The notes beneath the pieces are model-generated. The model searched no databases, was not told where the DNA came from, and saw only the letters and a list, made by a program, of their open reading frames with translations. DNA of 64,000 nt from Candidatus Bathyarchaeota archaeon (GTDB taxonomy: Archaea; Thermoproteota; Bathyarchaeia; Bathyarchaeales; Bathycorpusculaceae): NCBI GenBank assembly GCA_963707955.1, contig OY970176.1, forward strand, positions 1,979,013-2,043,012, in the 5' to 3' direction. Shown one piece after another: positions 1,006-52,846 of the stretch; the first letter of the stretch is position 1, and each line of letters starts with the position of its first letter. The position numbers were made by a program, and so were the translations under genes.

Positions 1006-1815
1006 TTAGCCGAGAATGAGGCGTATGCACACCCAGACGATGTCACCCGCAAACAAGGCAACGATCAGACCTGCCGTGACGAATATGAGCATGGGGAGGC
1101 CCGGGGTAGCCCAAACTTTATCTCTCATGCGGCCGGCTTCGATGGCTTTATCCAATCTTTCAACCATCTCGTTTCTACCTTCGTCTTTCGGCAGGATGAC
1201 CAGTTTTCTCTTGAAGCTTCCTTCTGCGTTTTCCTCGACGTCCTCCATGGGATACACGTGCCACTTCTCCTTCAACTTGCTGATGGAAACTTTGTACCCT
1301 GTTATTAACACCAGGATCTTCTTTCCAAGAGATTCGTTCTTGTGGTCTCCTTCAAACAGGGGTTGTCGAGTTCTGAAGCGTGAAGACACGTTGTAGAGCA
1401 GGATTGCTATTGCCGTAAGCGCTGCGAACAGTACCGAGTTGGTGAAAACGGTTATTGGGAAAAAGGTTGTTGAGATCGGTGAAGGCTGACCTGTTAACGG
1501 TGTCAACAGCTTCTCAGGATAGAAAGGCAAGGCAAGTGCCAAGCACATGAGCGCTTTTGCGTCTGCCCCTCCGAAGCCGCCTGAGTAATAGAGCAGTAGC
1601 GCGAAGGCCGCGGTTAAACCGAAGCAAGCACCATACCCGATCAGTTGTGAGGGTTCATAGAGAAAGAGTTCTGTGTATGTGAGTGCGAAAGATAAAGGTG
1701 CGAGCGCCAGCCAAACGTTGTCGCTTACTTCGCGGGATTTGTGGTCACTCCAAGAAGCATAAAGCAGAAAGAGCAAAACTGTCGTTGATCTTGCTAAGTC
1801 AAATATTACTTGCAC
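1006..1815 (-). CDS. archaeal prepilin/preflagellin peptidase (A24 family, FlaK/PibD-like)
   Basis: Polytopic membrane protein. It has the two catalytic Asp motifs DHKSREVSD and GFGGADAKAL. It is the last gene of the pilus-like operon. Confidence 0.85.
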   Translation of the reverse strand: MQVIFDLARSTTVLLFLLYASWSDHKSREVSDNVWLALAPLSFALTYTELFLYEPSQLIGYGACFGLTAAFALLLYYSGGFGGADAKALMCLALALPFYPEKLLTPLTGQPSPISTTFFPITVFTNSVLFAALTAIAILLYNVSSRFRTRQPLFEGDHKNESLGKKILVLITGYKVSISKLKEKWHVYPMEDVEENAEGSFKRKLVILPKDEGRNEMVERLDKAIEAGRMRDKVWATPGLPMLIFVTAGLIVALFAGDIVWVCIRLILG

Positions 1816-1924
1816 AGCGACACCGTTGCAGATCTTCTGTCGTTATTGCTCTAGAACTTAATAAGTTAGCACGTGTTGGCACAAGAAGCGTTGCGAATCG
1901 TTTAGGGCGAAGTTCTCGATTTTC

Positions 1925-2362
1925 CTAAGAGGTTCCTGCTAGCTGTCCAAATGGTCCTAGGATCTGCTCTTGAGCTATGACTTTGAAGTAATACGTTGTG
2001 CCTGACGTCCAGTTATAGTTTACCGTAATTCTCGCTACATGGCCCGCCGCGCACGTTTCCGGAAGAGATGAGCTTGTCAAGTTCTCCAGCGTTGAGGATG
2101 ATGTCCCAACATAAACTTGGATTAAGTGCGCGTCAGAAGTTCCTGTGTTTTCTATGTCAATATCTATCTTGTCATTTGCGGTTCCGTAGAAATTGACGTT
2201 TGCCTGCTTCAAGAAGACGCCTGCTTGGGTTGCAGTGCTGTTCACGTAGGTCATGACCCAAGCGTACGTCACGACGATTGCCGCCACCGCTATGACTACT
2301 AACAGCAGAGTGGCAAGTATCGGTGAAATTGCTCTTCGCGACTTCACGATTTTTTCTGTCAA
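1925..2362 (-). CDS. type IV pilin-like protein (class III signal peptide), candidate major pilin
   Basis: N-terminus KSRRA/ISPILATLLLVVIAVAAIVV has the archaeal pilin signal pattern. TTG start at 2362 is preceded by GGGTGA; GTG 2347 is an alternative. It has its own TATA-like TTAAATAA at 2410-2403 (minus). Confidence 0.75.
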   Translation of the reverse strand: MTEKIVKSRRAISPILATLLLVVIAVAAIVVTYAWVMTYVNSTATQAGVFLKQANVNFYGTANDKIDIDIENTGTSDAHLIQVYVGTSSSTLENLTSSSLPETCAAGHVARITVNYNWTSGTTYYFKVIAQEQILGPFGQLAGTS

Positions 2363-2503
2363 ACATGTTCACCCTTGTCTGCATAGCAAATCTCGCGATT
2401 CATTATTTAACTCGTATGAACTCGAAATCCACATTCGAAACAACTGCGAAGCACACGACATGAACTCGAAATCCATCCTCAGCACGGTGGAACAACCGTG
2501 CCA

Positions 2504-5131
2504 TCATAGCTGAATGTTCACTCCCGTCACTGCAACTGTCGGCGGGTACTCCACGAGAATCCACAAGCCTGTTTGATCGGTACTGTTGTAGATTGAAGTT
2601 GCAGTTGTGTTGAATGTGGCGACGGCACCGTACCAAATCATATCCTGCATGCGGGAATCTAAGGTCGTGTTGAAAGTCAGTTGGGACTTTGCTACTGGCG
2701 TTAATTGAATTGTACCGGTCGAATTTGTGTTCAGCCCTCCAGTCTTTATGCCTGTGATAGTGTCAAAGATGTAGAGATACTGGTTGGCATTGTCGGTGAA
2801 CATTATTCCAGCTCCTGTCGTTCCTGAAATGATCTGGCTCCAATGATGAGCCCACGTTGAGACTGAGTAATTGTAGAACAGATCGGTGGCGTTCGAAACG
2901 ATCGGCAAGCCGTTAGCCGTTCCGTTTTCGGTCTGCACCTGACCCGTCAACGAAGTCAACTGCACTGGGCACAAGTTGTTAATCGTTCTGTTCTGCTGCG
3001 ACTGAACGAAGAACAAGCTCAGCTGATACGTATAGTACGTCGCATTAGCTGGCAGGGTTAACACAATATCAGAATAAACGTCTGAGCAATTAGGGTTGGT
3101 TACACCACCATTTTGCCATTCAGCTTCCTGATGGACGATGTCTCTTACAACGCCACTCGTGATTACATATGAGGGACCCGCCCCATAATAGCCTGGGTTG
3201 CCGTTAATTTGCATGAAATTGGCCGTAGATGACGAGTTTCCAACAGTGAAGGTCACAGGTTCAAAGTTGCCTTGAAACCGGAGCGTTGCAAGGCGGTTCG
3301 AGATTATTCCAGAACCAGGCGAGTCGTTAAAGTACCGGTTCGTGTATGCAAGGGGTGTCTGCGTGGCTGTGTCGCTTCCGTTCCACCACATTGTGACTTT
3401 TGAAGTATTCGACGTCGCGAGGAAGACGAGCATTGTTCTACCGCTGAAAAGGCTCATGTTACTCGTCAAGCCCTGTGGAACTTGATATCCCGAGGACCAG
3501 TCTTCTATTTGGAACGGAACCTCGCCGTTCACGCCGTTTATGGTCTCGTTAACGTGGATCGATTTCACTGGCACTGGAGGAACGGGCAACGTTGAATTAG
3601 AATTTGTTAGGACTAAGTTTTGTCCAAGCCACCGCATCGTGCCGTCCTGCAGTAGCTCTACAGTGATCGTTCCTTGTTTTGACAACGAGTACAGGTCTAC
3701 GTTGGTTGAAACAAACAGTACGTTAGTTGCGCTTGTTTGATTGCTTAAGGCCAAGGTTGTGTCATCTATTCTGAGGTGAACGTTTACGCCTGACATGGCG
3801 GTTGATACGTCAACGTAGTAGTCTATTTCCAAGTAGTCAGTTTGGTCCACGACGGTGTAGTTAACCCAAGAGTAAGTTCCAGACAATGTTGTTGGAGCTG
3901 ACGTGAAATTAGCGGAAGGGGCTACGTTTGTCGCTATCGCTGTTCTGATCGTGCCGTCTGATCTTAGAATTGAAATGTTGATGTCCCCGTGAACAGACGG
4001 CGGTTGCACTGTAGGCTTCAGCGTCACGATGGAAACTGCCCAGTCAGCGCTCCCGGACAGGTTCCAAGACATCGTTAGACTGCCCGTTACAGGTCCCATC
4101 TCGCTGCCATGGTCTCTGTTGTTCGAGTTGGGGCTCTGAAAGGTCGTAGCGTTGTCCCATCTCATCGTCTGACCAGTTCCTTCGGAAACCACACTCGGTG
4201 CTTGATTGCCAGGGTATCTTACAGCCACGTTTCCTACCAGAAAGCTGTTAGACGTGCTGACGGTTATGCTTGCGGAAGGTGAGCTTGACGATCCACTTCC
4301 TCCAGATGAATCTCCAGATACCGGCGGCGTTTGGGAAACACCTGAGTAGGTTACCGAACCGCCGGTTGCCTTTGTATTTGCGGAGAGGTTCACAGTGACC
4401 GTGCTTGTTCCTGTACTAGGTGCAATCAGATACCAAATTTCGCTACGAATGTTTTGGCCTTGATCGGTATCTGCTCTTAGAAATGTCAGACTTTGACTGC
4501 CATACGAAATGCTTGTAACCTTCTCGCTCCCACTTGACAACTTGATTGAGACTCCAACTATCATTGTCCTGTTTGAGCCTGAACCAGTTGTGTGCTTCCA
4601 CGTAATTGTCGTTGCGCCATTTCCATTGTTTCCAGAGCTTGAGCTGTCAAAGGTTATGGTGTTTGCACTGCTACTAAACCATGCCCTGTAATTCAATGTC
4701 CAAGCGCTTGTCGGGATTGAAGAAACACCTGTCAGAGGATAAACAAACTTGCCCATCAGTTGTCTTCCTATGCTTCCTGCGCTGGCGTTGAGCGTTAATC
4801 CAGAAGCGTCAGCACTGCTGTTTTTCAACAGATAATAGGTTGAATTGCCAACTGTCGCAGTCTCCTGATGTGCATAGAGTGTCAGAGCGGAAACGCCAGA
4901 CGTGGAGTTCCAAGTCAACGCGACATTGTAACTGTTGAACGAAGCAGCGACAGTAATGATTCCTCTTTGGTCTTCCACCTGAACAACGTAGGAGTAAGGG
5001 TTAATTCCAGATGGTAAGTTAACGTAATATGTGCCATTTGCGTAGGCCGTAGGTTCTGTGGTTGGGTTCGCGAGACTGCCAAGTTGAGCTGGTGTTGTTG
5101 TATTGGTAGAAATCGAAGTTCTGTTGTCCAA
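2504..5131 (-). CDS. giant Asn/Ser/Thr-rich (N-x-S/T sequon-rich) extracellular protein; probably the 3' part of the gene starting at 5648
   Basis: 875-aa ORF with a TTG start and no signal peptide or hydrophobic N-terminus of its own. It overlaps the upstream pilin-like ORF by 113 nt in another frame. Confidence 0.6.
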   Translation of the reverse strand: MDNRTSISTNTTTPAQLGSLANPTTEPTAYANGTYYVNLPSGINPYSYVVQVEDQRGIITVAASFNSYNVALTWNSTSGVSALTLYAHQETATVGNSTYYLLKNSSADASGLTLNASAGSIGRQLMGKFVYPLTGVSSIPTSAWTLNYRAWFSSSANTITFDSSSSGNNGNGATTITWKHTTGSGSNRTMIVGVSIKLSSGSEKVTSISYGSQSLTFLRADTDQGQNIRSEIWYLIAPSTGTSTVTVNLSANTKATGGSVTYSGVSQTPPVSGDSSGGSGSSSSPSASITVSTSNSFLVGNVAVRYPGNQAPSVVSEGTGQTMRWDNATTFQSPNSNNRDHGSEMGPVTGSLTMSWNLSGSADWAVSIVTLKPTVQPPSVHGDINISILRSDGTIRTAIATNVAPSANFTSAPTTLSGTYSWVNYTVVDQTDYLEIDYYVDVSTAMSGVNVHLRIDDTTLALSNQTSATNVLFVSTNVDLYSLSKQGTITVELLQDGTMRWLGQNLVLTNSNSTLPVPPVPVKSIHVNETINGVNGEVPFQIEDWSSGYQVPQGLTSNMSLFSGRTMLVFLATSNTSKVTMWWNGSDTATQTPLAYTNRYFNDSPGSGIISNRLATLRFQGNFEPVTFTVGNSSSTANFMQINGNPGYYGAGPSYVITSGVVRDIVHQEAEWQNGGVTNPNCSDVYSDIVLTLPANATYYTYQLSLFFVQSQQNRTINNLCPVQLTSLTGQVQTENGTANGLPIVSNATDLFYNYSVSTWAHHWSQIISGTTGAGIMFTDNANQYLYIFDTITGIKTGGLNTNSTGTIQLTPVAKSQLTFNTTLDSRMQDMIWYGAVATFNTTATSIYNSTDQTGLWILVEYPPTVAVTGVNIQL

Positions 5132-5648
5132 GGGTTACGAGGGGTTGACTTTGGTCTTGGGTTATGCTCAGGCATGCTTGGCCGGTAGTTGTGTTGATGA
5201 TCTGGACGGTTAGTTCGCACGAAGCCTGGTAGCTAACGCCTAGTATGCCAAGCCCTGGCAAGTCATAGTTCACAGTCAAGCTTCCGCTGCTGTAGCTGGT
5301 GCTTGAGAACCAGTATGCATGAAGTGCAGAGCTGTTTAAGTTGATTGAAGTTCCCCATTCAGGATGCATATTTGCTATGTTCTGAAGTCCGGATTGAAGG
5401 TAGCTTGTTGCTACAGCTTGCGCGTATGACACGTTTCCAGTGACTTGTAGAACGGAACCGTAGTAGCCTAACGTGAAACCCAGAATTTGTTTGATTGCAA
5501 GATTCGTCTCGTCTATAGCGTTTAGAATCGGTGCCTGATTTTGGACTGGACTGCTGCGAATTGTCGAGTAGGTCGCTATAACGGTTGTGATGAGGATTAC
5601 CGCTACAAGCAACGCCGCGATTATTGAGAACTGGCCATTGTTGTTCAT
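5019..5648 (-). CDS. pilin-like N-terminal module (class III-type signal/TM)
   Basis: ATG 5648 is preceded by GGAGGAG. The N-terminus is MNNNGQFSIIAALLVAVILITTVIATY. The last ~18 residues (SREPNHRTYGLRKWHILR) look out of frame. Confidence 0.6.
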   Translation of the reverse strand: MNNNGQFSIIAALLVAVILITTVIATYSTIRSSPVQNQAPILNAIDETNLAIKQILGFTLGYYGSVLQVTGNVSYAQAVATSYLQSGLQNIANMHPEWGTSINLNSSALHAYWFSSTSYSSGSLTVNYDLPGLGILGVSYQASCELTVQIINTTTGQACLSITQDQSQPLVTLGQQNFDFYQYNNTSSTWQSREPNHRTYGLRKWHILR

Positions 5649-5649
5649 G

Positions 5650-6984
5650 CTAAACTCCTCCGGCCTCTCCAAGTTGTAGGACCACGAGTCTTGAGGTTCC
5701 GCTGGCACCGTACTGAGAAGGAAAGAGTGTAGGCTTATAATCGCTCAGGAGTCCAAGCGCCGTAAGCCTGATGTCAGGGGTTCTAGCTAACCCCAATGAC
5801 ATGAAACTGCCCGTGACGTTGCCCGAGATAATGTGCCTGTATACGGCGCCAGCGCTCCAGTTTCCCCATGGATTAAGTATGTAGGTAGTGACCGTTAACT
5901 GGTACGTGCCTAGTATCGATAAGTCCATAGCCCTGGTGGATGTTTGCTGGGAAGATGGATAAATCCCATAGTAGTTGGAATAGTATTGTGCGACGTTTGA
6001 TAAACTAACGACCGTGGCAGTTTCGTTAGTATCGCTGTTGGCATAAGTATAGCTCTTGTTGCTTAACCCTTCAAGAAAAGACCCGAGACCATTACTGCCA
6101 ACCATGACCATCCCATAGATTCCCCAATTGTTCTGGCTGGTTCCTATTACAGTGGTGGTGTTAGTGTTAGTTACGTAATAAAATGGCCATCCTACTATAC
6201 TTGCCCAGGTCCAATTATACTGATGTACTCTTTGCCCCAGAGTGTAGTCGTAGAGAGCATACGATTTGTTGGATGGATCGTATCCAACATTGCTACTCAT
6301 GTAATATCCGGCTGGTATCGGTACTGCTTCTCCATTTGTGTTTATCACGACAGCGTTAGTGACATTTTCGTACAGTGAGTTGGATATCTTGGTCCCATTT
6401 AATAGCTGTCCGAGCTGCGTGGTGTTCTGTACCATTACTGTTGCCTTGAAATACGGCGAGAGCAGGTTGTACAAATCTCCAGCCAACGTCTGCGCTGTGT
6501 ATCCTGTGATCCACCATCCGTTGGAGTCGCTGCAATTCAGTATGTAGAGGGTTCCCCCTGCTCCGTTTGCTCCGATTTTCTCGGGGGTTGAAAGGAAGGT
6601 TGCATTCGAGGATGCAACCAGGTAAGTGGCAACGTCGGAGCTTATGCCTAAGCTCTGGGCGTTCGAAAGGGAATTAACTACGCTATACAACTGCGTTCCT
6701 CCGGTTGACGCGTCGTAGACCGTCAGATTGTAGACAATGTGTGCGGGGAGACTAGCGGAGAGGGCTGTCTGAAGCTGGTTCCATGATGGATCATTTGGAT
6801 CGGTGAAGACTGTTTGGCTGAGGGAATGGTCAGAGTCCAGCATTTCGAGCGTCGTTAACGCTAATCTTCGAAGATTCACAGGGGAAACTTGTTGTGGTTG
6901 AGGAAGGAAAGCGAAGAACGAAGCTATTATTGAGGCTCCAGTGATGATGATTATTACGAGCAAAACCTCTATGGTTCGCATCAT
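5650..6984 (-). CDS. pilus-associated extracellular protein with N-terminal hydrophobic pilin-like segment
   Basis: N-terminus MMRTIEVLLVIIIITGASIIASFF. Sequon-rich body. Separated by only 1-2 nt from both neighbours. Confidence 0.65.
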   Translation of the reverse strand: MMRTIEVLLVIIIITGASIIASFFAFLPQPQQVSPVNLRRLALTTLEMLDSDHSLSQTVFTDPNDPSWNQLQTALSASLPAHIVYNLTVYDASTGGTQLYSVVNSLSNAQSLGISSDVATYLVASSNATFLSTPEKIGANGAGGTLYILNCSDSNGWWITGYTAQTLAGDLYNLLSPYFKATVMVQNTTQLGQLLNGTKISNSLYENVTNAVVINTNGEAVPIPAGYYMSSNVGYDPSNKSYALYDYTLGQRVHQYNWTWASIVGWPFYYVTNTNTTTVIGTSQNNWGIYGMVMVGSNGLGSFLEGLSNKSYTYANSDTNETATVVSLSNVAQYYSNYYGIYPSSQQTSTRAMDLSILGTYQLTVTTYILNPWGNWSAGAVYRHIISGNVTGSFMSLGLARTPDIRLTALGLLSDYKPTLFPSQYGASGTSRLVVLQLGEAGGV

Positions 6985-6985
6985 T

Positions 6986-8198
6986 TTAGCTCACGACCTG
7001 ATAGCCTTGCAGACTCCATAATGCGAGTTTTGCTTGATATGAAACGCCAGCGATTGTGACTAAGCGTGTGTCTGTGGTAACCCAGTCTCTTGAAAGCGGG
7101 CTAGCTCCGAAGACCACTGGAAAAGCCAATGAGCTTACTCCCCATGGCATCAACACGATGCCGGAATTTGCTTCGTCTTTCTCGTACGCAATCGCTAGAA
7201 TGCCAGTGTTATTCGTTGGGATTGCGACATTGCTGTAAGCGCCAGAACTGATGCTTCCTGTGACATTGGACAGTGGCATTTCACGTAAAGTGAAGTCTTG
7301 GGCTAGAACAACAAAAATCGCGTTGTATCCTAACGTATCGTTACTTCCACCGTACACGTCACCACTGTTTGCAAGAAGCAAACTTTCGTTGCCAAAATCG
7401 CCGATAAACGGTACCGGATAACTGTTGCTGTAAGTGACGTGTTCGTAGTCTCCAGTCTCCGACTAGGCCGCTTGAGCGGGCATAAGCGACGATGGCGTAC
7501 GACGTGCTCCCATCGAGACCTGGAAAACTCAGAGAAACCTGACCTTGGCTATTCGTCACACCTGTGCCGCTCGTGATCCCGTAGTCTGGGTATGGGGCTT
7601 GACCTGTGACGTTGACGAGGCAGTAGCTGACGTTTGCGTTAGCCAGCGGGTAACCATTTCCATTCACTGTCACGGTTAGGCTGAATGGATTCGTCGTGGC
7701 CGGACTCAGGCTAACTGTCACTATCGGTGTCAGGGTGAGGCTAAACCCGTAGGTTCCGTTTATTCCAAGCAATTGTGCCGCGGTTGAGTAGTTGATGACT
7801 TCGTTGAAAGGCGCTAATAACGATTTTTCAAACCCCATATTGGCGTTGCTGTAATACATTTTGGTCATGGGATAATATGTCGGGTTTCCTAACGAATTGC
7901 TCAGTCGCATGAGAGAAAATGGGCTGAGTTCGTACTGCGTGAATTCTGGGTCTTGGAGGCCGAAAGTCGTTGGGGTGCTATCGGTTCTTCCCCAGAACGT
8001 CGTGGTTGCCGAGTCAAGCGGACTGCCAGGGTTGAGAAGCATGCTGTCAAGCAGGTCACTGCATTTAGTTGCGAGATATCTGTGGCTCTGGTACAGAATT
8101 GCAGTTTGTATGGTCTGGTTGAAAAGACCTATGAAAAGAAGTAACGCTGCCAGTAACACTATGAGGGCAACAATGTGATCAATAGTTGCGCCGGCCAT
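6986..8198 (-). pseudogene. pilin-like protein gene split by a 7-bp tandem duplication (ORFs 7359..8237 and 6986..7381)
   Basis: ATG 8198 is preceded by GGAGG. The N-terminus is MAGATIDHIVALIVLLAALLLFIGLF. GGAGACT GGAGACT (minus strand, 7460-7447) shifts the frame. Removing one copy joins ...SSGLVGD to YEHVTYSNSYPVPFIGDFGNESLLLANSG... in frame. Confidence 0.75.
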
Positions 8199-8205
8199 CT
8201 TTTCC

Positions 8206-8682
8206 CTACCCTCCGAACCATAGCGATATCGTTCCATTCGAAAACTTTTGGGCGCTGACGCATGCGTTTGTAGAATTACTCATAAAGATGGATTGCTTCC
8301 AAAGAACGTTGGATCCTAAGATGACCGTGGTGGTCACGGAGTTTGAGGTTCCGACTAGTTTCACTGTTAATTGCAAGAAGGACGGATTTGAAGGGTTTGT
8401 GCTCGACGACAGAATCGCATTTCCCGTGTAATAAGAACTCTCAATGAACTGTGGAAGTCCTGGGGAATAGGTTATTGTTCCTGCAGGTATCGAGTCGTGA
8501 TTCAGGGAGAAATACAGTTGCTGCACTGCGCTTCCTAGTTGACCTGCAACATCTTGGACAGCAAGTGTTCTTCGCGAATCTACCCAAGTGTTCATGAGCG
8601 AATTTGCAAAAATGGGAAAAAGGAAGATCTGAAGTATCAACACCGGCATCATAATGATGTACTCGATTGTCACGTGTGGCAT
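8206..8682 (-). CDS. small pilus-associated protein with N-terminal hydrophobic segment
   Basis: ATG 8682 is preceded by GGAGG. The N-terminus is MPHVTIEYIIMMPVLILQIFLFPIF. Confidence 0.6.
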   Translation of the reverse strand: MPHVTIEYIIMMPVLILQIFLFPIFANSLMNTWVDSRRTLAVQDVAGQLGSAVQQLYFSLNHDSIPAGTITYSPGLPQFIESSYYTGNAILSSSTNPSNPSFLQLTVKLVGTSNSVTTTVILGSNVLWKQSIFMSNSTNACVSAQKFSNGTISLWFGG

Positions 8683-8701
8683 TCATATTCCTCCAAAGTG
8701 G

Positions 8702-9578
8702 TTAAGCATACTCTCCTATAGCAACGGTCACATTTCCAGTGTAGAATTCCAATGAAGAGCCTGCTGGGACGTGTAAGTCTGCCTGAGAACTGTTGAAATC
8801 GAAAAAGGTTGAGTCGAACCCCCCCGAAACTTGGGGAGGTTTGTGGAAAGGCAACGGTTATGTTGATCTCTTTGACATTCTGTACTGTTTGAACATTGAA
8901 TGCCGTTGCCATAAGTGTAACGGATTGTGAAATGTGCAGGTTATTTCCTGATGGTTGAAGGATGGGCAAATAAAAGTTATAGTAGCCCGTATTTGCCACC
9001 GTCGAATTCAGCATCCTTATCGAAGGTGCAACGACTACTCTTACGTAACTACCATCCTTCATTGGAACTCTTTCGATCACGAATACGTGACTCACTGGTG
9101 CGGTGGTGCCCTGTACTAGGAAGGAACTGTTTGATGTGGGAGATATGAGTTCCATGTAGTTGTTGGCAATGTTGTAACTGCCCGTGGGCATGTTGAAAAA
9201 GAGGGCGCCTGTGGTGAAGCTGACATTCGGCGTGTTTGCACCGTTTACGTAAAGAGCGTAGGTCAAATTCGCGGTCCCAAAGGTGATTTGACCAAACTGG
9301 CTTGCATAACGCATTGTTTGCGTGCGTCCAACAGTCCATGCTACGTCGTCTATTTGCTGGCCGACTGTCTGCATAAACTGTTCCATCGCGCTAAACTCGT
9401 TTTCTGCTATCCGCGCGTTCATGTAGTTGTTTGCGAAAATAACAGTGACTAGGAGTAGCACCACTATGGTGCTCGTGATTATTACGGTGGAAATGGCTGG
9501 GGTAACCGCCTTTTTGTCGTTTCTGAGTCGATGTATCATGTTACTCTTCGCTCTTTCCTTGATCTTTTTTCCTATCAA
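8702..9578 (-). pseudogene. type IV pilin-like protein with a frameshift in a C7/G7 homopolymer
   Basis: Class III signal KKA/VTPAISTVIITSTIVVLLLV (start TTG 9578 or ATG 9539). After the G7 run (plus-strand C7 at 8819-8825) the listed ORF turns Arg/Cys-rich and overlaps the next gene. With 6 G it reads ...SFGGFDSTFFDFNSSQADLHVPAGSSLEFYTGNVTVAIGEYA and stops at 8704-8702, 19 nt before the next start. Confidence 0.7.
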
Positions 9579-11245
9579 AATTTTATGAACATGGGCACCA
9601 GTTTCGCAGCGACAACGGATACTACCACGAGGATTGAGGCATGCTTGAAGCCTGCCGCAATTGATTCTTCGCTTATCTTACCTGCTACTATGCCTATGAG
9701 ATAACTGGAGAAAATGCATGATGTGTTGAATACGGCTCTTATCCAGCTCATGTCCGGCGGTTGCGTTCCTCCGGATATCCCAAAAGTGCCTGAAGTGAAG
9801 CCTAACATCATGGTTGTTGTTATCACAAGAAGAAGAGCGCACATATAAGGCATCATTATGTACGGACGGGTATCCGACTTCTTTTGTTTGTCAATTTCTT
9901 GCGTCAAGTTGTTAAAGCGTGCAAGCGATTCTATCATTGCGATTGTGCCGCCGCCCACGTCCACAGTTTCAACGAGCAAGAACATGACGATCTGAGACAT
10001 CCAGCTTCGAGTTCTCTTGACAAAATCCATTATCACTTTTCGGACAGGAAGTCCCCAAGAGATTTCTGAGCTTATCTTGCGTAGTTCTTTGCTGAATACA
10101 CCGTAGTCGCGGTGTGAAAGACTTTCAATGCATTTTTCTGGCGACAGGCCAGTTTTTCTGACTTCTGTCAAGTCTCTAAGGAAACTGTTTATGCCCTCTT
10201 CAGTCTGCGTTGTATGGGTTGAGAGTTTGCTGTGCACTATCGCAGCGGGCGCCGTGGCAACAAACAACGATACGGCCGTGGCCACGGGCAGGTCGACTAG
10301 TGAGCCAAAGATCTTGAAAACGTAGAGTAGCACGAACAGCACTATGCCTATGATGCCGCATAATGCAAACACCTTGTAGGGACGCATTTCGGTGATAGGA
10401 GTCTTGGGCTGCATGCTGTGTGCCAGGTAGATGAACATCATTGAAAGCATGGGACTGAGTCCGAATGTGTAGAGGATTATCATTGAAGTGGACCCTCCGC
10501 CGCCTACGCCGCCGATGTTTTCAACGCTGAACATGATGTAGAAGCAGAGGGACATCATGACGTTGACGATTATGAAAGTCTCCAGGAGCATTCCAAGTCT
10601 TTCAGCAGCGGCTCTGACACGAAGTGCTCTTGCTTTGAATATGTCTTCGGCTTTTCTTTCGAGGAAGTGTCCGATGTCGCCGCCGATGATTACTGTCGAC
10701 GCGTACCCTGACAAGAAATCTTTGAAGATGTCCAGGGGGTTTTTCTTTGCTGCGTTTTCAATCGCAGTTAGCGGGTCTATGCCGAAGATCTCAACGTCTT
10801 TTATGATTTCTCTTGCCTCGCTCTTCATGTATGGCAGCAGATCGACCTCGGAGAGTCTTTTGAAGCTGCTGTACGGTGCTATGCCTCCGGAAGCCATTAC
10901 GCTGATGTAAGATGAAGCAAACGGCATCTCTCGTTCCAAGTTGGCCGCTCTGTCACCGGCTCTAGACATTGGAACTAGGAAAAACCCGATAATCACGAAG
11001 AGCGGAAGGGGAATCAGGAAAATGACCGGAATGAAGCCGTAGAGAAGCATGACAACTGCGCAGACTGCCGATATTGGAATGGTTAATACGGCTATGAAAA
11101 GCATCAATGACACGTAGGTTTCTGGGTAAATCTTGATCCTTGCTTTTTCCAAGTAGTCTTTAAACTGTATATGTTTCAGAAAAGAGGGCGATGTTCTTCC
11201 GAAGATGCGGAAGGACCACGCCTCAAGGGTTTCTAGAAACGGCAA
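9575..11245 (-). CDS. FlaJ/TadC/PilC-family polytopic membrane platform protein
   Basis: 556 aa. Two blocks of TM helices are separated by soluble domains. It lies directly downstream of the secretion ATPase and overlaps it. Confidence 0.8.
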   Translation of the reverse strand: MPFLETLEAWSFRIFGRTSPSFLKHIQFKDYLEKARIKIYPETYVSLMLFIAVLTIPISAVCAVVMLLYGFIPVIFLIPLPLFVIIGFFLVPMSRAGDRAANLEREMPFASSYISVMASGGIAPYSSFKRLSEVDLLPYMKSEAREIIKDVEIFGIDPLTAIENAAKKNPLDIFKDFLSGYASTVIIGGDIGHFLERKAEDIFKARALRVRAAAERLGMLLETFIIVNVMMSLCFYIMFSVENIGGVGGGGSTSMIILYTFGLSPMLSMMFIYLAHSMQPKTPITEMRPYKVFALCGIIGIVLFVLLYVFKIFGSLVDLPVATAVSLFVATAPAAIVHSKLSTHTTQTEEGINSFLRDLTEVRKTGLSPEKCIESLSHRDYGVFSKELRKISSEISWGLPVRKVIMDFVKRTRSWMSQIVMFLLVETVDVGGGTIAMIESLARFNNLTQEIDKQKKSDTRPYIMMPYMCALLLVITTTMMLGFTSGTFGISGGTQPPDMSWIRAVFNTSCIFSSYLIGIVAGKISEESIAAGFKHASILVVVSVVAAKLVPMFIKF

Positions 11246-12851
11246 CTGCCTTAACCTCCTCCCCTGCGAGAACCTTCTCGTAGATCTGCTTTGGCTTGGC
11301 AGAATACTCTGCTATTATTGCGGCCACGTCCTTGTAGCTTCTGATGTCATGTTCTCTCATCCAATGGAGTACGACTCTGCGCTTCTCAATTTCTGCGATG
11401 AGGTCTTTCTTGCTCATGCCCAGTCGCTCGGAGATCCCGGCAAGCATTACACTCTTGTCAAACGCTTGTATCTGTTCGTCCTTGTTCGGGTTCCATTTGA
11501 AGACTGTCCTGTAGTCCTCGTAGTTCGCGATCTCGTTCACGTCCAGTATACGCCTGTACGCCTTTCGTTCGCTGTTCTTGATCAGGTGGACTCTTTGAAC
11601 CGACAGCACTATGTTCATCAGCGGAATGTATGCTGGAGAGATGTCCATGGGTTTAGAAGTCAGTCGTTTAATCGCTGAATCCAGGTTTTCAGCGTGCATG
11701 GTGCACATTCCACCGTGGCCCGTGGCCAAGGCTTGGAAGAGCACGTATGCTTCTTGTCCTCTCACCTCTCCCACTATGAGTATGTCTGGACGGTGTCTCA
11801 TCGAAGTTTTGACCAAGTCGAAAAGTGCAACTTCTCCTGTGCTGTCTCCGCCCAGGCCATAGCTTTGTCTGGCGATTAGTGAAACCCAGTTTTCAAGGGG
11901 TAGATTAAGCTCAGCTGTTTCTTCTATCGTGATGACCTTGCTTCCAGGCTTAATCAGGCAGGCCAGAGCGTTTAGGGCGGTTGTCTTTCCTGCTGCCGTT
12001 CCGCCCAAAACCATTATGGAGGCTCTTTGTTCAAGGCATTGCCAGAGGTAAGCGGCCATCTCCTCCGAGAAAGTGCCTATGTTTATGAGGTCTATTATGG
12101 AATACGGGTCTTCTCTAAACTTCCTTATGGTGAAAGCCGTGCCGAAAGGCGTGACTTCGCGTCTGTAGCACACCGAAAGCCTGTGCTTACCCGGCAGCGA
12201 GGCATCGACGATCGGGAAGGCTGAGCTTACGTGTTTTCCAGCCATGTGTACGAGCTTAACAACCATGTTGTCAAGTTCTTCATCCGTCTGAAACTCGATG
12301 TTGGTTTCGATGCTCTCGTAGGTTCGGTGCCAAATATAAACGGATTTGCCTACACCGTCACATGAAATATCTTCAATGTTCGGGTCTCGCATCAACGGGT
12401 CGATCTGACCGAACCCCACGAGGTCTCTTTCCGCGTGGTAGAGAATCTTGTACCACGACACGTCGGGCAACCAGCCGAGGCTTATGCGGTACTTGTCAAC
12501 GATCTTCTTTGCCTCGTCTGCGAAGAACCTTCTAGGATCCAGAATTTCCTCTTTTGGGGACTCGATCTCTGCGAGGAGTATTTCTAGGATGCGGTTGTAG
12601 ACGCTTCTCTCCAGCGGGTCGAGCTGCAGTTCGTCTAGAATGTACTTGAACTCCCCAGTTTTTGGGTTTTGTGCGATAGCCACGTGGGCGAAAGGCTCGT
12701 AAAGCGGGTATTTTTCCACAACCTTGTACCCTCTGGGTACGGGTCTTGGCGTTGGAGCAGGGACGGCTGTCTGCTCGCGCTTTTTAAAGTTGAGTTTGAT
12801 CTGCACTGTCTTCAGCTTTGCCAGTTTTCCTTTCAGACGCAACTGTGTCAT
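11223..12851 (-). CDS. type II/IV secretion ATPase (FlaI/PilB/VirB11 family)
   Basis: Walker A GGTAAGKTT, the ILIVGEVRGQEA box and ATGHGGMCTMHA. GGAG lies 7 nt upstream of ATG 12851. AT-rich TATA-like ATATTTAATA lies further upstream. Confidence 0.9.
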   Translation of the reverse strand: MTQLRLKGKLAKLKTVQIKLNFKKREQTAVPAPTPRPVPRGYKVVEKYPLYEPFAHVAIAQNPKTGEFKYILDELQLDPLERSVYNRILEILLAEIESPKEEILDPRRFFADEAKKIVDKYRISLGWLPDVSWYKILYHAERDLVGFGQIDPLMRDPNIEDISCDGVGKSVYIWHRTYESIETNIEFQTDEELDNMVVKLVHMAGKHVSSAFPIVDASLPGKHRLSVCYRREVTPFGTAFTIRKFREDPYSIIDLINIGTFSEEMAAYLWQCLEQRASIMVLGGTAAGKTTALNALACLIKPGSKVITIEETAELNLPLENWVSLIARQSYGLGGDSTGEVALFDLVKTSMRHRPDILIVGEVRGQEAYVLFQALATGHGGMCTMHAENLDSAIKRLTSKPMDISPAYIPLMNIVLSVQRVHLIKNSERKAYRRILDVNEIANYEDYRTVFKWNPNKDEQIQAFDKSVMLAGISERLGMSKKDLIAEIEKRRVVLHWMREHDIRSYKDVAAIIAEYSAKPKQIYEKVLAGEEVKAVAVSRNP

Positions 12852-12952
12852 TGTTGTTCTCCTGTGCTATACTGTTCATATGCGAACGGTCTATTAAATA
12901 TTACGTCTCACGAGACCTTACTGCCCTTCCGTCTCTTCCTTGGTTGAAACAA

Positions 12953-15950
12953 CTATGAGTTCTTCTTGATCAGAACAAGGATTAGGACCGCAACAACTAT
13001 TGGGATCGCAACGAGAAGCACGGTTAACAACGGGAAGCCTTGTTCTTCAGGAGCAACGATCAATGTCACGGTTGACTGTCTCTGCTGATATCCGCTTTTT
13101 GCCAACATAACCGTCATGTTCAGCGTGTCTACTGGGGCTTGTGGAGCGGTTATGATGAATGTGCAGGTTCCAGTTGAGTCTGTGACATTTGTCAGTGGGC
13201 CTCCGTACCCGTATGATACTGTGACTGTTGCACCGGCCACTGACGTGGCGTCTTCCTTGCACGTCACGTGTATCGACACCGTTTCTGTTTGGCCTGACCA
13301 AAGTGTCGCCGGGGCTGTTTGAAAACCAAACGTCCTAGGGTTCACTGTGATGTTCAGCTGACCTGTGCTGTCAAGGTATCCCGTTTCTGAAGCGGTTGCT
13401 AAAAACGAGATGTTGGTGGCCGCATTAACTGTGGGTGCAGTGAAGGCGAATGTCACGTTGCCAAAGCCGTCTGTCACTCCTGTCGTCTGGGCGAAGGTTC
13501 CGTTGGCTGCCGTGATCGTGACGTTAGCCGCCTGAATCGGACTGCTTCCGTATCCCACGTGAACCGTGACGTTTGAGTTTCCATATGAATATGTGATGGG
13601 CGAATCTGGAATGATGCTGACCGAAAGAACCTTTGGCATTATCATCACTACCGTTTGACTTTCACCGTCTACGTATCCGCTCATGACGGCTGTCGCAGTG
13701 ATGGTTGCGTTGAGTCCGTCGCTCGATGAGGTCTGGGGTGCTGTGAAGGCAAATATTGCGGCACCTGTTGTGTCTGTTAGCTGCGTTACCGTGGAGAAGT
13801 TTCCGCCGACGTCTGAGGTCACGGTGACCGTCGCATTCGCAACAGGGTTCCCGTCAAAAGTTACGACCGCCGTTATGGTCGCTGATTCTTCCGAAAGAAT
13901 TACGTCGGGGCTGGAGATCACTTCTACAGCGAGTTCTCGAGGTTCAACGCTTACGATCGTTTCTCCCTGTCCGTCAGCATATTGCGGTTTGCTGGCTGTG
14001 ACTGTGACGGTAATGTTGACCTCACTCAGCGTCAGCGGGGCTGTGAGTGTAAATGCTGCTGAACCGTTTGAGTCTGTTGTTCCGGTATTAGCTGAAAGTG
14101 TGCCGTTGGTGCACGATAATGTCAGGTTTGCCCCGGTAACGGGTTCTCCGGATTGATCCGTCACATAAACATTCAATGCTGTCACTTCTTCAGACCTTAT
14201 CGTCGAAGGTACGGGGATCACCTGAACTATCAGTGGTGGAAGAACTCTGACGTACGCGTAGTCGGAACCGTCCGCGTACCCGTTCATTGAGGCTCTCGCG
14301 ATTATTCTGACATCCGTTATCTCTGTGACGTTTGGCGCCGTGAAGTTCGCTGTAAAGTACCCATTGACGTCCGTCAACCCTGACTGGGGTGAGAAGCTTC
14401 CGCCCCTTACGGAGAGCATCGTGACGTTGGCGTAAGCAGCTGCGCTGCCTCCCGCTGACACGTAGACCGTAACTGACGTCTGTCCGTTGTAGGCAACGGT
14501 AGAATTGCTCACAGAGACTGATGCACCCAACTGAGGAAGGTCTGCAACGGTTACTGTCGTGAATGTAGGTGCGCTTACGTTTCCGAAATCGTCCTCTACG
14601 GTCAGGCTCGCGACGTAGGTTCCTGGTGAAGAGTAGCTGTGATTGAAAAGCGAAAGTGTTGTCCAACCGCTGTTTCCTGCGTCGTTGAAGTCGAAAAAGT
14701 ACTGGTACACGCTTCCGTCATCGTTTGAGTCTGTTCCCACGAACGTGACATCTTGCCCGGGTGCCACTAGGAGCTTGTCTGTCCAGAGAACTGCTGTTGG
14801 AGGGGCGTTATTGTATGCGAATGGGTGCGTTAACCACGGTATGAAGAGAAGGTTTGTGCCGTTACCTCCGACGCTGTTTCCTTTTCCGTACGGGTTCAAC
14901 GATTCATGCTCGGGGCCGGTCTCCTGGCCCCAGTAGTTGTGTGTTGCGTTGACTGTGCCAGTGTATGATAGGGCCAGTTCGACACCTTGCCCATTCTCGA
15001 ATATGTCGTTGAAGTAGACTGTGTGATTTGCGGAGCCATCATACTGTATTCCGACGGTGTTGTTTGAGACGTAGTTGCCGGTGATATAGGTGCTCGCGTT
15101 GGCCGAGATGAAAAGCCCAAAGTTGTTTGCGGTCACGTTGTTCCCGGTTATGACTGTCTTGTCCAGGGTTTCTGCTTCTAGGAGTATTCCGTTTTGCGTG
15201 CTAGAAGAAATTTCGTTTTGTCTGATATCCATTGTTCCTGTTAGATTACCAGTCAGGAGCACGCCGTTTATATTTGATGTGATAAGGTTGTTGTACACGT
15301 TCACCTGGTTACCTCCAGCTATGAGGATGCCGTTTCCGTTTGAATCTATGATGTCGTTTTCTATTGAAGCAAGGTCTCCGCCTGCTATGTTGATGGCGCT
15401 GAAGGTGTTGTTGGTGGTGCTCAAGCTGTTGTTGGCCAACTCGCTGTTCTGAATGGTCAATGCACCACCGTTCAATATGATTCCGTTCTCAGAGTTGAAT
15501 CGTATCACACTGTTTTCTACGTCCAAGATGCCGCTGTCGACTGTTATTCCGTTTGTTCCGTTTTCGATGATGCAGTTCATGAACGATGACGGTTGTGTTC
15601 CCTTGATTTCGATTTTCTCCCAAGCGATGGCGCCGGACGGGTCGTTGGTGGTGAAAAGAATGTTTCGCTCCGGCGTTCCGTTTGCTACGACTGTTCCGTT
15701 CACTATAAGCGAAAAGTCTCCTCCAAACCTGACCTCAACACCCGGTCTCGATCGTCAGCGTTGCACCCGGGTTGACGGTCACGTCGTTAGAAAGCACGAA
15801 CGGGCTGTCCACTAGGGTCCATATCGTGTCCTGCGTGATTACGCCCTCAACGTATGTCGCTTTGGCGGTGGGCAGGGTTTTGTAGGCGATGTTGAGGGAA
15901 CCAAAGATTATGGTGAATAAGAGGAGTAGTAACGTGAATTGTTTCTTCAT
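12953..15950 (-). pseudogene. surface adhesin: signal peptide, right-handed beta-helix, PKD domain, about 6 Ig-like repeats, C-terminal TM anchor; split by a 1-nt indel
   Basis: ATG 15950 gives MKKQFTLLLLLFTIIFGSLNIAYKTLPTAKA...NPGATLTIETGC, then a stop. The next frame continues PGVEVRFGGDFSLIVNGTVVANG... (listed ORF 12953..15703). Beta-helix repeats (NGI.L..., NN...N), a PKD-like block (VTFVGTDSNDDGS...GTYVASLTVEDDFGN), repeated ~95-aa Ig-like units, and a tail FPLLTVLLVAIPIVVAVLILVLIKKNS. Confidence 0.75.
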
Positions 15951-16132
15951 GGGGAAACATCCAATTTGTATTCGAGTTCGTGTTATTCCTCTCGTTCGTA
16001 CCAGCTTAAGCGTTATGAATTCAGAATAAAACTTCAAAATCTTGAGGTGAATGGTTTTCTGGTTGTGCGTGGTTGGGCAAGAGATTTAACGAAGCGAAAG
16101 AACAACCTGATTCACAGTTGTGAGGGGGTTGC

Positions 16133-16906
16133 TTGAGAAGTTTCACTGCGTTCGCTCCGGAGGGTTTTCCGCTTGTGAAGCCAGGAGACAACGTTGCAGG
16201 AATCATCGTTGAGACTTGTGAAAAGAACGGTTTTAGGATTCAGGAAGGCGACGTGATCGTTGTTGCCCAGAAGGTCTTCTCGAAGGCTGAAAATCGTTTG
16301 TTCAGACTGAGAGAAGTTGTTCCTTCAAGAAGAGCTCAAGAGCTTGCCAAGACGACTGGGAAGAGTCCGAGGTTCGTGGAGCTTGTTTTGAGGGACACTG
16401 CGAACGTGCTCAAGGCTTCTTATGAAGTGCTGCTGGTTGAGGACAAGCGCGGTTTGATATGTATAAATGCTGGAATAGACAAGTCGAACGTTGAGGGGAG
16501 AGGAAACTTCGCGTTGCTGCCCGAGAACCCTGATTTGTCCGCGAAAGAGTGCCGCTTGGAGATGAAGAAACTGACAGGCGTGAACGTGGCCGTGATCGTT
16601 TGCGACACTTACAGTCGTCCTTTCAGGCGTGGGCAGGTGAACTTTGCGATAGGAGCTGCTGGAATCAACCCGTTCAGGGATTATCGCGGAACGCGGGATC
16701 TGTTCGGTCAGGTTTTGAAGGTTAAGAATGTTGCTGTGTTGGATGAGGTTGCTGCCGCGGCAGAGTTGCTCATGGGACAAGGGAAGGAAGCAAGGCCCGT
16801 TGTGGTTTTCAGGGGTTTGAGCGGTGCAGTAGCGGTTTGTGACGAGTGCAGCACAAGAGGTCTGCAGATTTCGAGGCAGGAAGACCTGTTTAAGGGTGCC
16901 CTATGA
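16133..16906 (+). CDS. cofE: coenzyme F420-0:L-glutamate ligase
   Basis: Family-typical blocks GDVIVVAQKVFSKAE, INAGIDKSN and VIVCDTYSRPFRRGQVNFAIG. TTG start. Confidence 0.85.
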   Translation: MRSFTAFAPEGFPLVKPGDNVAGIIVETCEKNGFRIQEGDVIVVAQKVFSKAENRLFRLREVVPSRRAQELAKTTGKSPRFVELVLRDTANVLKASYEVLLVEDKRGLICINAGIDKSNVEGRGNFALLPENPDLSAKECRLEMKKLTGVNVAVIVCDTYSRPFRRGQVNFAIGAAGINPFRDYRGTRDLFGQVLKVKNVAVLDEVAAAAELLMGQGKEARPVVVFRGLSGAVAVCDECSTRGLQISRQEDLFKGAL

Positions 16907-17228
16907 TCGTAGCCGTTGCCGGGGAAAGACTATCGTTTCCTCCTGCGTCTGCTTAGAGGTTTCATGCTTTTAGGTGCTTTTCGTCTGCAGCCAGCAGGCC
17001 GCTACTGAATTCAATGTTTGATTGTTATGAGGCTGAACGCGGTCTTGTGCTGTGGTTTGTGCGTGCGTGCAACGGTGGTACGCCCCTCTATACGAGCCTA
17101 CTTTGCCTCTATTCGTTTCAAAACATTGTCTGTTTTTGAATTTTTCTCTTTTTTTTCCCTTTTTCTGGGATGGAAAACCTTTTAAATCGAATGGTTACAA
17201 ACTATAGAAAGAACAATTTAGATGAGGA

Positions 17229-20200
17229 ATGAAAATGCAAAAAAAGAAAGTACTAATTGCAACGATAGTAACTATAACGATATTTCTATCAATGTTCAGC
17301 GCAATAAGCCTAACGAGAGGAGTTAACCAACCCTCCTCTTTCTACACAGTTGCCAATGGCAATCTCAACACTGACACATACTCGCTGTATCCGTTTGAAG
17401 CAAACAACGTAAGCTTTGGCTTCTCACAATATGGTGAACTAATCGGCATTGCACCAGGTGCAAACCAAGCAGTACAAGCAAACTGGGTCGGCATGAGCTA
17501 CAATGGTCGCGACCCATTCGCTCCGAACACTACCACGATTCCACAGAATCAATGGATCAACGGCTGGTTCCTTTACATCAGCTACATCGACCCCAATGAG
17601 CCAGTTCAGGACAGGAACCTGTGGGCATTCGCACTGTTTTCTGACGGTCACGTAGCCGGCGGAGACTGGGTAATCAACGTTACTGGTTCTCCGACTAGCA
17701 CGCCTTACGGTGGCAGGAAAACCAACGGCATGGTCATCACAGACCCGCTGACTGTGCTCTACAACGGTCCAAGAGAGTACATAGCTCAGGCAACGAACCA
17801 CATCTATGACAACGATGGCACGTACACGTGGCCAGTTGTCGATCTGATCATAACCATGATTTTCGACAAAGTTTCCAAAGAAGTGATTCTGTACAAGGAT
17901 GTGAAGACCACAATAGACAAATTGAACTTATGGGGCAAGCTTGACGTGCAACTGAGCGACCGTGAAGAATACGACATGGGATCAGCATCATCAGACAACG
18001 CGTATTCTAGCTACGCCCACTTCTACGAAGAAGCCGGATGGACGAGCATGACTCCAAGCTGGTCAATCGCACAGAACCTGACCGCAGACAACATCGAGCA
18101 CCAAGTAGGGTCAACCGGCACAGTAAACCTGGACGGCTCAGAGACCTTCACACTGAATCCACCAAACGGATATCCAGTGTCTGAGGATTACATGAAAGTG
18201 TACGTGAACGGCGTTTTCCAAGTCCCAAGTCTGTACACAGTAAGCTATGGACCCACGACATACGTGACGCTTATCACGGCTCCATCATCAAGCTCCATTG
18301 TGCAGTTCAATTACAAGTACGTGTTCAAAAGCACCACGCAAGTGCTTGATGGGGTAAGCGCGGCGACGAGCACGGTTTCGACAGCAAGTGATCCATCACT
18401 TCCATCATGGGCGAACGAATACGATTATGCACAGGTGATATCGTCCGACAATCAGTACGTGGCTTGGGCTGCCTTTTGGCCACCGACATCTTCGCAGACG
18501 GTTGACGGCATCGAAAACTTCTTGCAGCCGCTCTATAACGTGCATACAGACACCTTGAGCAGCGCGCCGAAGCGGTCTCCACTCATAATAGGCCAATGGG
18601 ACGTTGCGATGGATCCCTCAACATTCCCGATGTTCAGAGCAGTTGAAGTAAAAGGCATATGCAACGACCACAATGCACAAGATCCTCAAGAAACCCTCTC
18701 GACATACCGTGGGACGCAACTTGACATTGAAGCCCAGTACCAGCTTGACTCAGTCTTCGCACCGTACAACCTGCGTGAAGCCATAACGGAGAACCTTAAC
18801 ACTTGGGTAGACTACTATACGGTGACAGCAAACGACATACTGAGAGGATATCTCTACGTCGACCTGTCTCATTCGCCAGTTCACTACGTATATCCTTGGG
18901 AAACTTATGACAGCCAGTCTGAAAGAGTGCTCGTAAACGGTGTGCTACAGTATCCATCGCGAAGTGTTGCAGCCAATGAACTGGATACGTCACCGACGTA
19001 CCAGACACCTACATATGAACTCTACACAGAAGACGGTGTAGGCTACATATACTTCCCCGACAGCACAATCTTCACCAAGGGAGACGTGATAAAGGTCATC
19101 TACGCGACAGAAACGTGCAACTATGAGTCTGGCTTCAGTGTAACTTCGAATACGTTGACTCCTGGTGGTGAAAACTCCAGCTTCGACTTCGGTAGCAACA
19201 CATATTGGCCAATTGACGCTTGGAGTCTGGGTGGACTACTTGAATGTCCAACACGACATAACCATCAAAGAGTTTGACGGTTCCATCACACCACCCGATA
19301 GCACACCAACCGGAAACACGACGTGGACATACTACAAACTGATGGACTGGGAGGCAAAGGACTTTACAGTGTTCAAGGAAGACACTACGAGCCTTGAGAT
19401 AAGCGCTTATGACTTCTCGGCGGACACCGTGGAAGCAAATGGAACTGTACCTGGATACGACATGACGATTCAACTGCAGGACTTTAGAATAAAATGGCAA
19501 ATAACCGGTCCAGAAGGCACTTGGTTCAATGACCTTTTAGATGTCATGGTCTCTAAGTGGGACTTCAACGTATACATCTACGTATACGTGAACTATGTAG
19601 TACCACCTACTGGAAGCCCCTACTACACTACAACCGCAACACTTTCGTTTGAGCCAAAGTATGGTAGTACTCTGTACAAGGAAGAGATACCTGGAAGCTA
19701 CACGTGGGGCATCGTCGGTTCTAATGCGAAGTCCGTCGACTCTGCAGGCCTGTCAATGATCAGCGCTGCTTTGAAGGATAAAGAAGTAGAGTACGGTGTA
19801 GCAGGCGCGGACATCAACGCTACGGATCCCACTTTACAGATGCCATATGTATTCAGCAAGATGAGCACCGGCACAAGCACACTATGGAGTCCCTACTACT
19901 ACAGCACGACCGATCTAAGAACAGGACTCCGAGACGACTGGGACCCGGCGGGCACTGACACGCAGATCTCAAGGGCCAACTTAGTCGGCTCAGGCGGTCC
20001 GCTCGTGAACATGCTCGCGTACTACGGCAACGACTTTACATCAGCCTTCTACGGTATAAGCCAGTTCACACCATACGGACCTTGGAATGGCGCCATAGTT
20101 GCACTATCATGCTGGAGCGACTACGACAAAGCGTTCTTCACTAGTGCCTCAGTTGGCTACGCAGTGATTTCAACCTTCGAAGACCTCAACGGAACAACGG

Positions 20201-20475
20201 GACTTTTGGTTTACGGCGTCTGGGGACGAGACACATACTACGCGGCTAGCTACTTCTACCAGGACCTCATACAGGAATTCCAGAGCTTCCCATGGGGCGC
20301 AACGAGCATCGTACTACAGATCACGTACAACACTACGACACTTAAGCCGAAAGCGTTCAGCGTCGTCGAAGTGCTGGGCACGATAAGCGAAACAGGAATC
20401 GACAGCACATGTTGGCCACCATACGTTTGGGGCGTTAGTACTCCAATAAAAGGCGGAATACACCCCGACCCATAA
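17229..20475 (+). pseudogene. large (~1080 aa) secreted protein of unknown function, split by a 1-nt frameshift near 19226-19240
   Basis: Signal peptide MKMQKKKVLIATIVTITIFLSMFSAISLTRG. TATA-like TTTTAAAT lies ~45 nt upstream. ORF 17229..19277 ends in the implausible LLECPTRHNHQRV. ORF 19165..20475 in the +1 frame continues VDYLNVQHDITIKEF... Confidence 0.7.
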
Positions 20476-51357: not shown

Positions 51358-52185
51358 ATGACCAATCTGATTTCAGTTTCTAGTGCACCTATCGCTGGGT
51401 TTGGGGACAAGGAATACTACGACCTTCTGGGCACGATTGAAGTGATGAAAAAAGTCTCTGAAGAGGTTGTGGTTGATGGTTTTGAGTTGCAACTTGAACC
51501 AGAATGGGACTGCGAAAATGCACCATTAACCGATGCTGACTGGGCTGATTGGACTAAGACTCCCAAATTTACTTTTGAAGAAGTTGTGGAACTAATCAAA
51601 AGTGAGGGTCTACCAATCCTTTCTGTTCATGCGAGCAGGGATGTCGGAAGTTATCTCTGCTCTGAGAAGGAAAGAGATTGGGAGAAGGGAAAGCGTGTCA
51701 TTTATGGTGCATTGTCAGTTGCTGAAGGATTGGGAGCGGAGGTTTGTGTATTTCATCTTTGGGACACTTGGAAAAGCAGTTTCGATTTGCGAAATGTCGA
51801 GAACATTTTTCTGAAGACAGCGGAACAGTTTCCAAAGGTTAAAGCTTCGGTTGAAAATATCCCAACACATCTAGAAGGTTATTCTCCGTTCATGTTGGTT
51901 GGGTCTGCCAATTATGTGACTTTAGACTTGAGATGGGCAACTATGTATAAGGAGCTTGACGCTTTCGAGTCGATAATTAACGGTATTGTGAATGTTCATC
52001 TGCGAGGGAGTCTGAAGGAGAGTAAATGGGTTCTAGAGCGTTCAGACTTTGATTTCTATGAAGCCTTGAACAAAATAAGAAAGGAATGGAAATATTCAGG
52101 ATTGCTCACAGTCGAGCCTGAAGGTAGAATAGACGGGTCATTGTTTGAAAGCTTCCTAGAAGCGATGCACACCTTGAAGACGTAG
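51358..52185 (+). CDS. xylose isomerase-like TIM-barrel protein (sugar phosphate isomerase/epimerase family)
   Basis: Pattern LSVHA...VCVFHLW...ASVENIP...VHLRG...TVEPEG, typical of the AP_endonuc_2 fold. Confidence 0.65.
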   Translation: MTNLISVSSAPIAGFGDKEYYDLLGTIEVMKKVSEEVVVDGFELQLEPEWDCENAPLTDADWADWTKTPKFTFEEVVELIKSEGLPILSVHASRDVGSYLCSEKERDWEKGKRVIYGALSVAEGLGAEVCVFHLWDTWKSSFDLRNVENIFLKTAEQFPKVKASVENIPTHLEGYSPFMLVGSANYVTLDLRWATMYKELDAFESIINGIVNVHLRGSLKESKWVLERSDFDFYEALNKIRKEWKYSGLLTVEPEGRIDGSLFESFLEAMHTLKT

Positions 52186-52200
52186 ATTCCTATTTGTTCA

Positions 52201-52230: not shown

Positions 52231-52237
52231 GCTTTCT

Positions 52238-52839: not shown

Positions 52840-52846
52840 ATTATCT

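Follow-up and report, generated by a model that had tools for sequence, protein, structure and literature searches.

Methylation motifs cause systematic miscalls in nanopore sequencing, which can exceed 50% of the reads at a site and enter assemblies, and only some of the occurrences of a given motif are affected (bioRxiv 10.64898/2026.01.14.699587; PMC12392509). In these reports, A/G-type errors at 6mA motifs are stressed over C>T changes and insertions at cytosine motifs (bioRxiv 10.64898/2026.01.14.699587; PMC12392509). We analysed a stretch of 64,000 nucleotides from a Bathyarchaeia contig (hereafter the window), in which a pilin-like gene of a type IV pilus-like operon appears to be broken at positions 7447-7460. 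The results indicate that this frame break is very probably an error of the assembly consensus and not a feature of the DNA of the organism, and that the pilin-like gene is almost certainly intact, as a single open reading frame (ORF) of 403 aa.

The operon itself comes closest to the Ups, Aap, bindosome and archaellum systems of archaea, with which it shares a T2SSE-family ATPase, a T2SSF-family platform protein and a prepilin peptidase carrying both Peptidase_A24 and Arc_PepC_II signatures. It occupies positions 1006-16037 on the minus strand and is conserved in Bathyarchaeia, with the same gene order in species 79% and 67% identical. A beta-helix/PKD/Big_1 surface protein is followed by the FlaI-like ATPase, the UpsF/ArlJ-like platform protein and five helix-bearing proteins, and downstream of these lie a 145-aa gene and then the prepilin peptidase. 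PF00437 was detected in the ATPase orthologues at the orthologous loci, and the prepilin peptidase is found at the same place in these loci. This gene content suggests that the locus would work as an archaeal type IV pilus-like assembly system. Since all scores against the named systems fall below the curated cut-offs, membership in Ups, Aap, the bindosome or the archaellum is unsupported. The presence of five proteins with an N-terminal hydrophobic helix is also shared with archaeal type IV pilus systems, as is the modelled pilin-type alpha-1 helix followed by beta domains. In contrast to the named archaeal pilus systems, this operon encodes helix-bearing proteins of 403-1047 aa with tandem Ig-like domains, far above the size of typical pilins. 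The operon is widely conserved, and none of its five large pilin-like proteins can be assigned to a described family. Beside the prepilin peptidase gene, we observed that the contigs of two short-read runs (X1 and X2, described below) branch at 1951-2204, with loose ends at 1951 and 2204, short alternative contigs of raised depth. This falls within the 145-aa ORF at 1925..2362 and possibly reflects strain-level variation in that gene.

The 403-aa gene is the third of the five helix-bearing genes (~291, 158, 403, 444 and 1047 aa). Neither its product nor those of its four helix-bearing neighbours gave a match in Pfam (E <= 0.01) or a meaningful match in NCBIfam (E <= 1). The protein starts with a hydrophobic alpha-helix of the class III signal-peptide type (MAGATIDHIVALIVLLAALLLFIGLF...), which is conserved in 26 homologues and whose cleavage is putative. 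An AlphaFold2 model built from 26 sequences (mean pLDDT 71, pTM 0.67) places residues 2-55 in a long helix of the type IV pilin kind, followed by a poorly predicted linker at ~57-143 and by beta-sandwiches at 150-395 with pLDDT of 80-95. Foldseek searches against the PDB returned generic tandem FnIII/Ig matches only, with low TM-scores. The predicted domain plan would be a type-IV-pilin-like N-terminal helix and two Ig/FnIII-like beta-sandwich domains, and this suggests a role as a large minor-pilin-like subunit, or a tip or adhesin-like one. The point at which the gene is interrupted in the window corresponds in the model to a hairpin turn between strands 234-242 and 245-253. As this junction lies inside a beta domain, a split there would cut the domain in two.

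In the window, the interruption consists of GGAGACTGGAGACT at 7460..7447 on the minus strand, which separates a 292-aa ORF, whose likely start is the ATG at 8198, from a 131-aa ORF in the +1 frame relative to it. The earlier note, made from the letters alone, had described this as two exact copies of GGAGACT splitting one gene, and this description of the sequence holds: the minus strand reads ...GGC CTA GTC GGAGACT GGAGACT ACG AAC..., the repeat is exactly 2 x 7 nt and cannot be rotated, and the frame from 8237/8198 runs with both copies into RLRTRHLQQQ... and stops at 7359. Removal of one 7-nt copy fuses the two frames, giving 401 aa from the ATG at 8198, and the two ORFs are indeed the halves of one gene of ~400 aa, broken exactly at 7447-7460. 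Exact 7-mer tandems were found at six distinct sites in the window, compared to ~3.9 expected by chance (64000/4^7), so that GGAGACT x2 is by itself unremarkable.

The same region was then compared with independent sequence of the same population. Four short-read runs from one freshwater-sediment study (X1-X4) were compared as contigs, in the loose ends of which Nextera adapter tails were seen, together with two further contigs, L001 (ENA) and L002 (Logan), which match the window at ~99.94% over 2441..18198. The earlier note had proposed to count the copies of the repeat in reads, and at the level of contigs the answer was uniform: the intact form, one base shorter than the window, is carried by those of 4/4 runs (X1 depth 32.6) and by L001 and L002, with the limit that Logan contigs drop rare variants and a minority sub-population with the extra base would be hidden. 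The missing base is position 7456. In the base-by-base alignment, L001 and L002 read GGAG-CTGGAG against GGAGACTGGAG in the window, and the site without this base reads GGAG-CTGGAGACT in the short-read and independent contigs alike. Over a longer stretch, GCCTAGTCGGAGACTGGAGACTACG of the window corresponds to GCCTAGTCGGAG-CTGGAGACTACG in L001 and L002, again with position 7456 as the one-base difference, and in X1 (~32x) the gap at 7456 is the sole difference from the window over 6900-8300. Dropping 7456 restores an unbroken protein of 403 aa (...SSGLVGAGDYEHV...). This corrected product is 100% identical over 100% of its length to P0001, a 403-aa protein encoded on both L001 and L002, which exceeds the fusion obtained by deleting 7 nt by two residues. 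The truncated product of the window is P0043 (279 aa), present on a single metagenomic contig of 2,346,764 bp. As all independent contigs lack base 7456, the real codons are GGA GCT GGA GAC TAC (Gly-Ala-Gly-Asp-Tyr). The perfect repeat arises because the extra A lands in a natural near-repeat encoding Gly-Ala-Gly-Asp.

Homologues support the same correction. We found more than 1,000 of them in Bathyarchaeia, of ~405 aa and unbroken, and those that are named are hypothetical proteins. On the question raised in the earlier note of whether orthologues show two separate genes, they show one unbroken gene. Across 26 aligned homologues (56-100% identity) the pattern at the junction is SGLVG-x-G-[DY]Y.H, in which G244, L245, G247 and G249 are invariant. 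The one-base correction restores G247 and G249, whereas the 7-nt deletion loses Ala248 and the invariant Gly249. The orthologous DNA is GGA GCC GGA GAT TAC in the species 79% identical and GGA GTC GGT TAT CAG in the species 67% identical. No 7-nt tandem is present at the orthologous site, neither in the same strain (GGAGCTGGAGAC) nor in the two other species (GGAGCCGGAGAT and GGAGTCGGTTAT), and there is thus nothing to slip there.

To place the extra base among other discrepancies, the X1 and X2 contigs were compared with the window over positions 1-60000 (Table 1). This gave 28 difference events, 23 of which fall in AGCY/RGCT, a motif accounting for 4.9% of bases (P = 6e-26, binomial). After orienting, the C of R-G-C is the centre of 22/22 motif events; a T follows at +1 in 21 of these and an A at +2 in none, and 23 of the 738 motif sites are affected (~3%). 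All 17 substitutions have the same direction, the window showing T (or A) where the reads have C (or G), and their context is RGCT throughout except for one AGCC. Four events are one-base insertions between G and C, one is a lost C and one further event is complex; this last one falls in an AGCT next to a G7 run, and it is the AGCT and not the length of the run that differs. When the four insertions are read as in the short reads, the split ORFs are fused into frames of 1079, 430, 1043 and 1082 codons, and the same reading of the indel at 12959 extends an ORF from 933 to 945 codons (+12). Genes called on L001, on L002 and in two other species agree with the lengthened versions. Of the 17 substitutions, ten are non-synonymous, as random error and not selected change would predict. 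These results indicate that the discrepancies recurring one base at a time at RGCT sites stem from consensus error rather than from a mutation of the pilin-like gene.

Table 1. Positions in the window of the frame break, of the discrepancies at RGCT-type sites and of the main genes of the pilus-like operon.
Feature	Position	Strand	Remarks
Apparent 2 x GGAGACT	7447..7460	-	Very probably an accidental product of an extra base in GGA GCT GGA GAC T
Extra base, very probably spurious (A on minus, T on plus)	7456	-	Separates the G and C of AGCT; lacking in all independent contigs
403-aa pilin-like gene	6986..8198	-	Equals P0001 after dropping 7456; window shows 7359..8237 (292-aa ORF) and 6986..7381 (131-aa ORF)
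Substitutions, T/A for C/G, first part	4177, 9761, 12630, 21145, 22538, 23717, 25504, 30380, 31723		C of R-G-C-T
Substitutions, T/A for C/G, second part	32743, 33990, 34901, 38128, 46381, 51467, 55384, 55698		C of R-G-C-T
Extra base, AGCT	5075	-	~1047-aa gene split into ORFs 5019..5708 and 2504..5131; frames of 876 and 241 codons become 1079 when corrected; L001 calls a 1047-aa gene there
Complex discrepancy, AGCT beside a G7 run	8826..8831	-	Window AAGTTTC, short reads AGCTTT; changes C-terminus of 291-aa pilin-like gene; L002 calls a 291-aa gene there
Missing C of AGCT	12959	-	3' end of ~1010-aa beta-helix/PKD gene
Extra base, GGCT	15746	-	Removes N-terminus of ~1010-aa beta-helix/PKD gene; 933 and 116 codons become 1043
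Extra base, AGCT	19226	+	~1080-aa gene split into 17229..19277 and 19165..20475; 683 and 438 codons become 1082
T2SSE-family ATPase, FlaI/ArlI-like	11223..12851	-	NCBIfam archaellum ATPase FlaI 2e-113, below curated cut-off
T2SSF-family platform, UpsF/ArlJ-like	9575..11245	-	PF00482 6.5e-25; NCBIfam UpsF 6.4e-39, below cut-off
Archaeal prepilin peptidase	1006..1815	-	PF01478 Peptidase_A24 4.8e-13; PF06847 Arc_PepC_II 1.3e-21

Over the 15.7 kb common to the window, L001 and L002, no discrepancy was found outside AGC[T/C] sites. L001 has errors of the same class of its own, namely A for G at both 12959 and 5225 and an extra A at 9761; at 5225 X1 sides with the window against L001. Since the errors of L001 are found at other RGCT/AGCY sites, the affected sites vary by assembly and not by lineage. 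L001 corresponds to ENA contig_46609, a name in the Flye style which suggests a long-read assembly; on its own numbering, errors of this class stand at 5239, 8438, 9381 and 12973, and one consequence is that its T2SSF gene is called with 522 aa rather than 556 aa.

The five remaining differences lie outside the motif, at 43366 and 54937-55062, where short-read depth is raised or a paralogue array is adjacent, and they may be true strain or paralogue differences. The 54937-55062 cluster comprises two one-base deletions, a G>C and an A>C, with X1 depth of up to 45-56x, and it probably derives from reads of a paralogue or a second strain and not from the RGCT error class. We also observed, at 52173-53893, three small paralogous genes (178, 178 and 146 aa) that have diverged to 72-82% identity and stand in tandem with a period of 609 nt. 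Within this array an X1 contig runs from 52233 directly to 53413 and omits 1179 nt, about two units, which suggests that the copy number varies in the population or that the array was collapsed in assembly.

In our interpretation, one spurious A would have been placed between the G and the C of an AGCT, producing GGAGACT x2 by accident and shifting the frame, where short reads of the source population would read GGAGCTGGAGACT. The extra base at 7456 would then belong to a set of ~23 errors per 60 kb at RGCT sites, in which the C is read as T, a base is inserted before the C, or the C is lost. Extrapolated roughly to the 2.35 Mb of the contig, this rate would amount to several hundred such sites. 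The contig would be a long-read assembly that had no effective polishing, either with short reads or with a methylation-aware tool. A single metagenomic contig of this size is typical of long-read assembly, and we infer that nanopore-type long reads lie behind the window; no nanopore run containing the window turned up in a search of sequencing runs. The nanopore-consensus reading draws on the restriction to one motif, the single direction of the changes, the ~3% of sites affected and the disagreement with short reads. As for the cause, cytosine methylation of RGCT in this archaeon seems a reasonably likely one.

The earlier note had seen in the repeat a 7-bp duplication left by strand slippage, which might be switchable, and the exact 2 x 7 nt at the break and the reopening of the frame on removal of one copy do speak for it. 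However, the intact allele differs from the window by 1 nt and not by 7, and the window and the independent sequence part at this site by base 7456 only, so the duplication was not borne out. Moreover, the 7-nt repair would delete the invariant Gly249, the orthologues (GGA GCC GGA GAT and GGA GTC GGT TAT) are without repeat, six exact 7-mer tandems occur in the window by chance, and two copies make no contingency-locus tract. Nor did we find evidence of a switchable mutation, as the contigs of the 4 runs and the 2 further contigs all have the intact form. The case resembles slipped-strand phase variation of surface genes in that a short tandem repeat stands at the point where a surface-filament gene is frameshifted; it departs from it in having two units only, a 1-nt allele difference, no repeat in orthologues and no second allele in the contigs. 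We consider this origin scarcely credible. Hardly more can be said for a programmed +1 ribosomal frameshift joining the two ORFs in translation: the downstream frame is +1 and both halves make one protein, but the gene is in a single frame in the same population and in >1,000 homologues, and a conserved slippery site is absent from the orthologues. Such recoding is likewise extremely improbable.

Deamination of methylated cytosine leads to C>T transitions at methylated motifs. A real one-base insertion, accompanied by the other RGCT changes in the assembled strain or sub-population, would make the pilin-like gene a true recent pseudogene, and deamination gives it a source for C>T changes, the direction of 17/17 substitutions fitting a derived lineage; contig-level data can also hide minority variants. 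Against this, a single base inserted between G and C is not a deamination product, four ORF-splitting indels would have to fall within 20 kb of conserved genes, and no ordinary mutation is seen outside the motif in ~57 kb of unique sequence. In the second assembly, changes of this class occur at sites other than those of the window, and the window's 31-mers at the site matched no indexed run, a weak result as only 2 words were sampled. On balance we regard real mutation as unlikely. Still less likely is that the RGCT changes are real products of a mutagenesis aimed at the organism's own methylated cytosines in one lineage, with C>T changes and adjacent one-base insertions; if true, several large surface-protein genes including a pilus component would have been knocked out and the rest of the genome spared. 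We also considered the short-read contigs as the faulty side and rejected this, given that the 4 runs agree and that ORFs and invariant residues are restored by their version.

Consensus error being the preferred reading, RGCT errors would make five or more genes within the first 20 kb of the window mimic pseudogenes, frameshifting or phase variation. For the ~1047-aa, ~291-aa, ~1010-aa and ~1080-aa genes, the broken or altered appearance would be due to errors at RGCT sites only. Any frame break in this genome should first be checked for an RGCT site and only then be interpreted. The error pattern may also serve as an indirect sign that the cytosine of RGCT is probably methylated in this uncultured Bathyarchaeon.

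Altogether, the errors in the window resemble the nanopore errors described at methylation motifs. They are confined to a short motif, consist of transitions on the base presumed to be modified or on its neighbour, hit a fraction of the motif sites and, when set against short reads, appear as SNP-like and frameshift-like artefacts in coding sequence. They differ from those at the commonly reported Dam, Dcm and CcrM motifs in that the motif is RGCT with the C affected. Unlike in the usual cases, one-base insertions before the C are prominent here, and both the nanopore-type platform and the methylation are presumptive.
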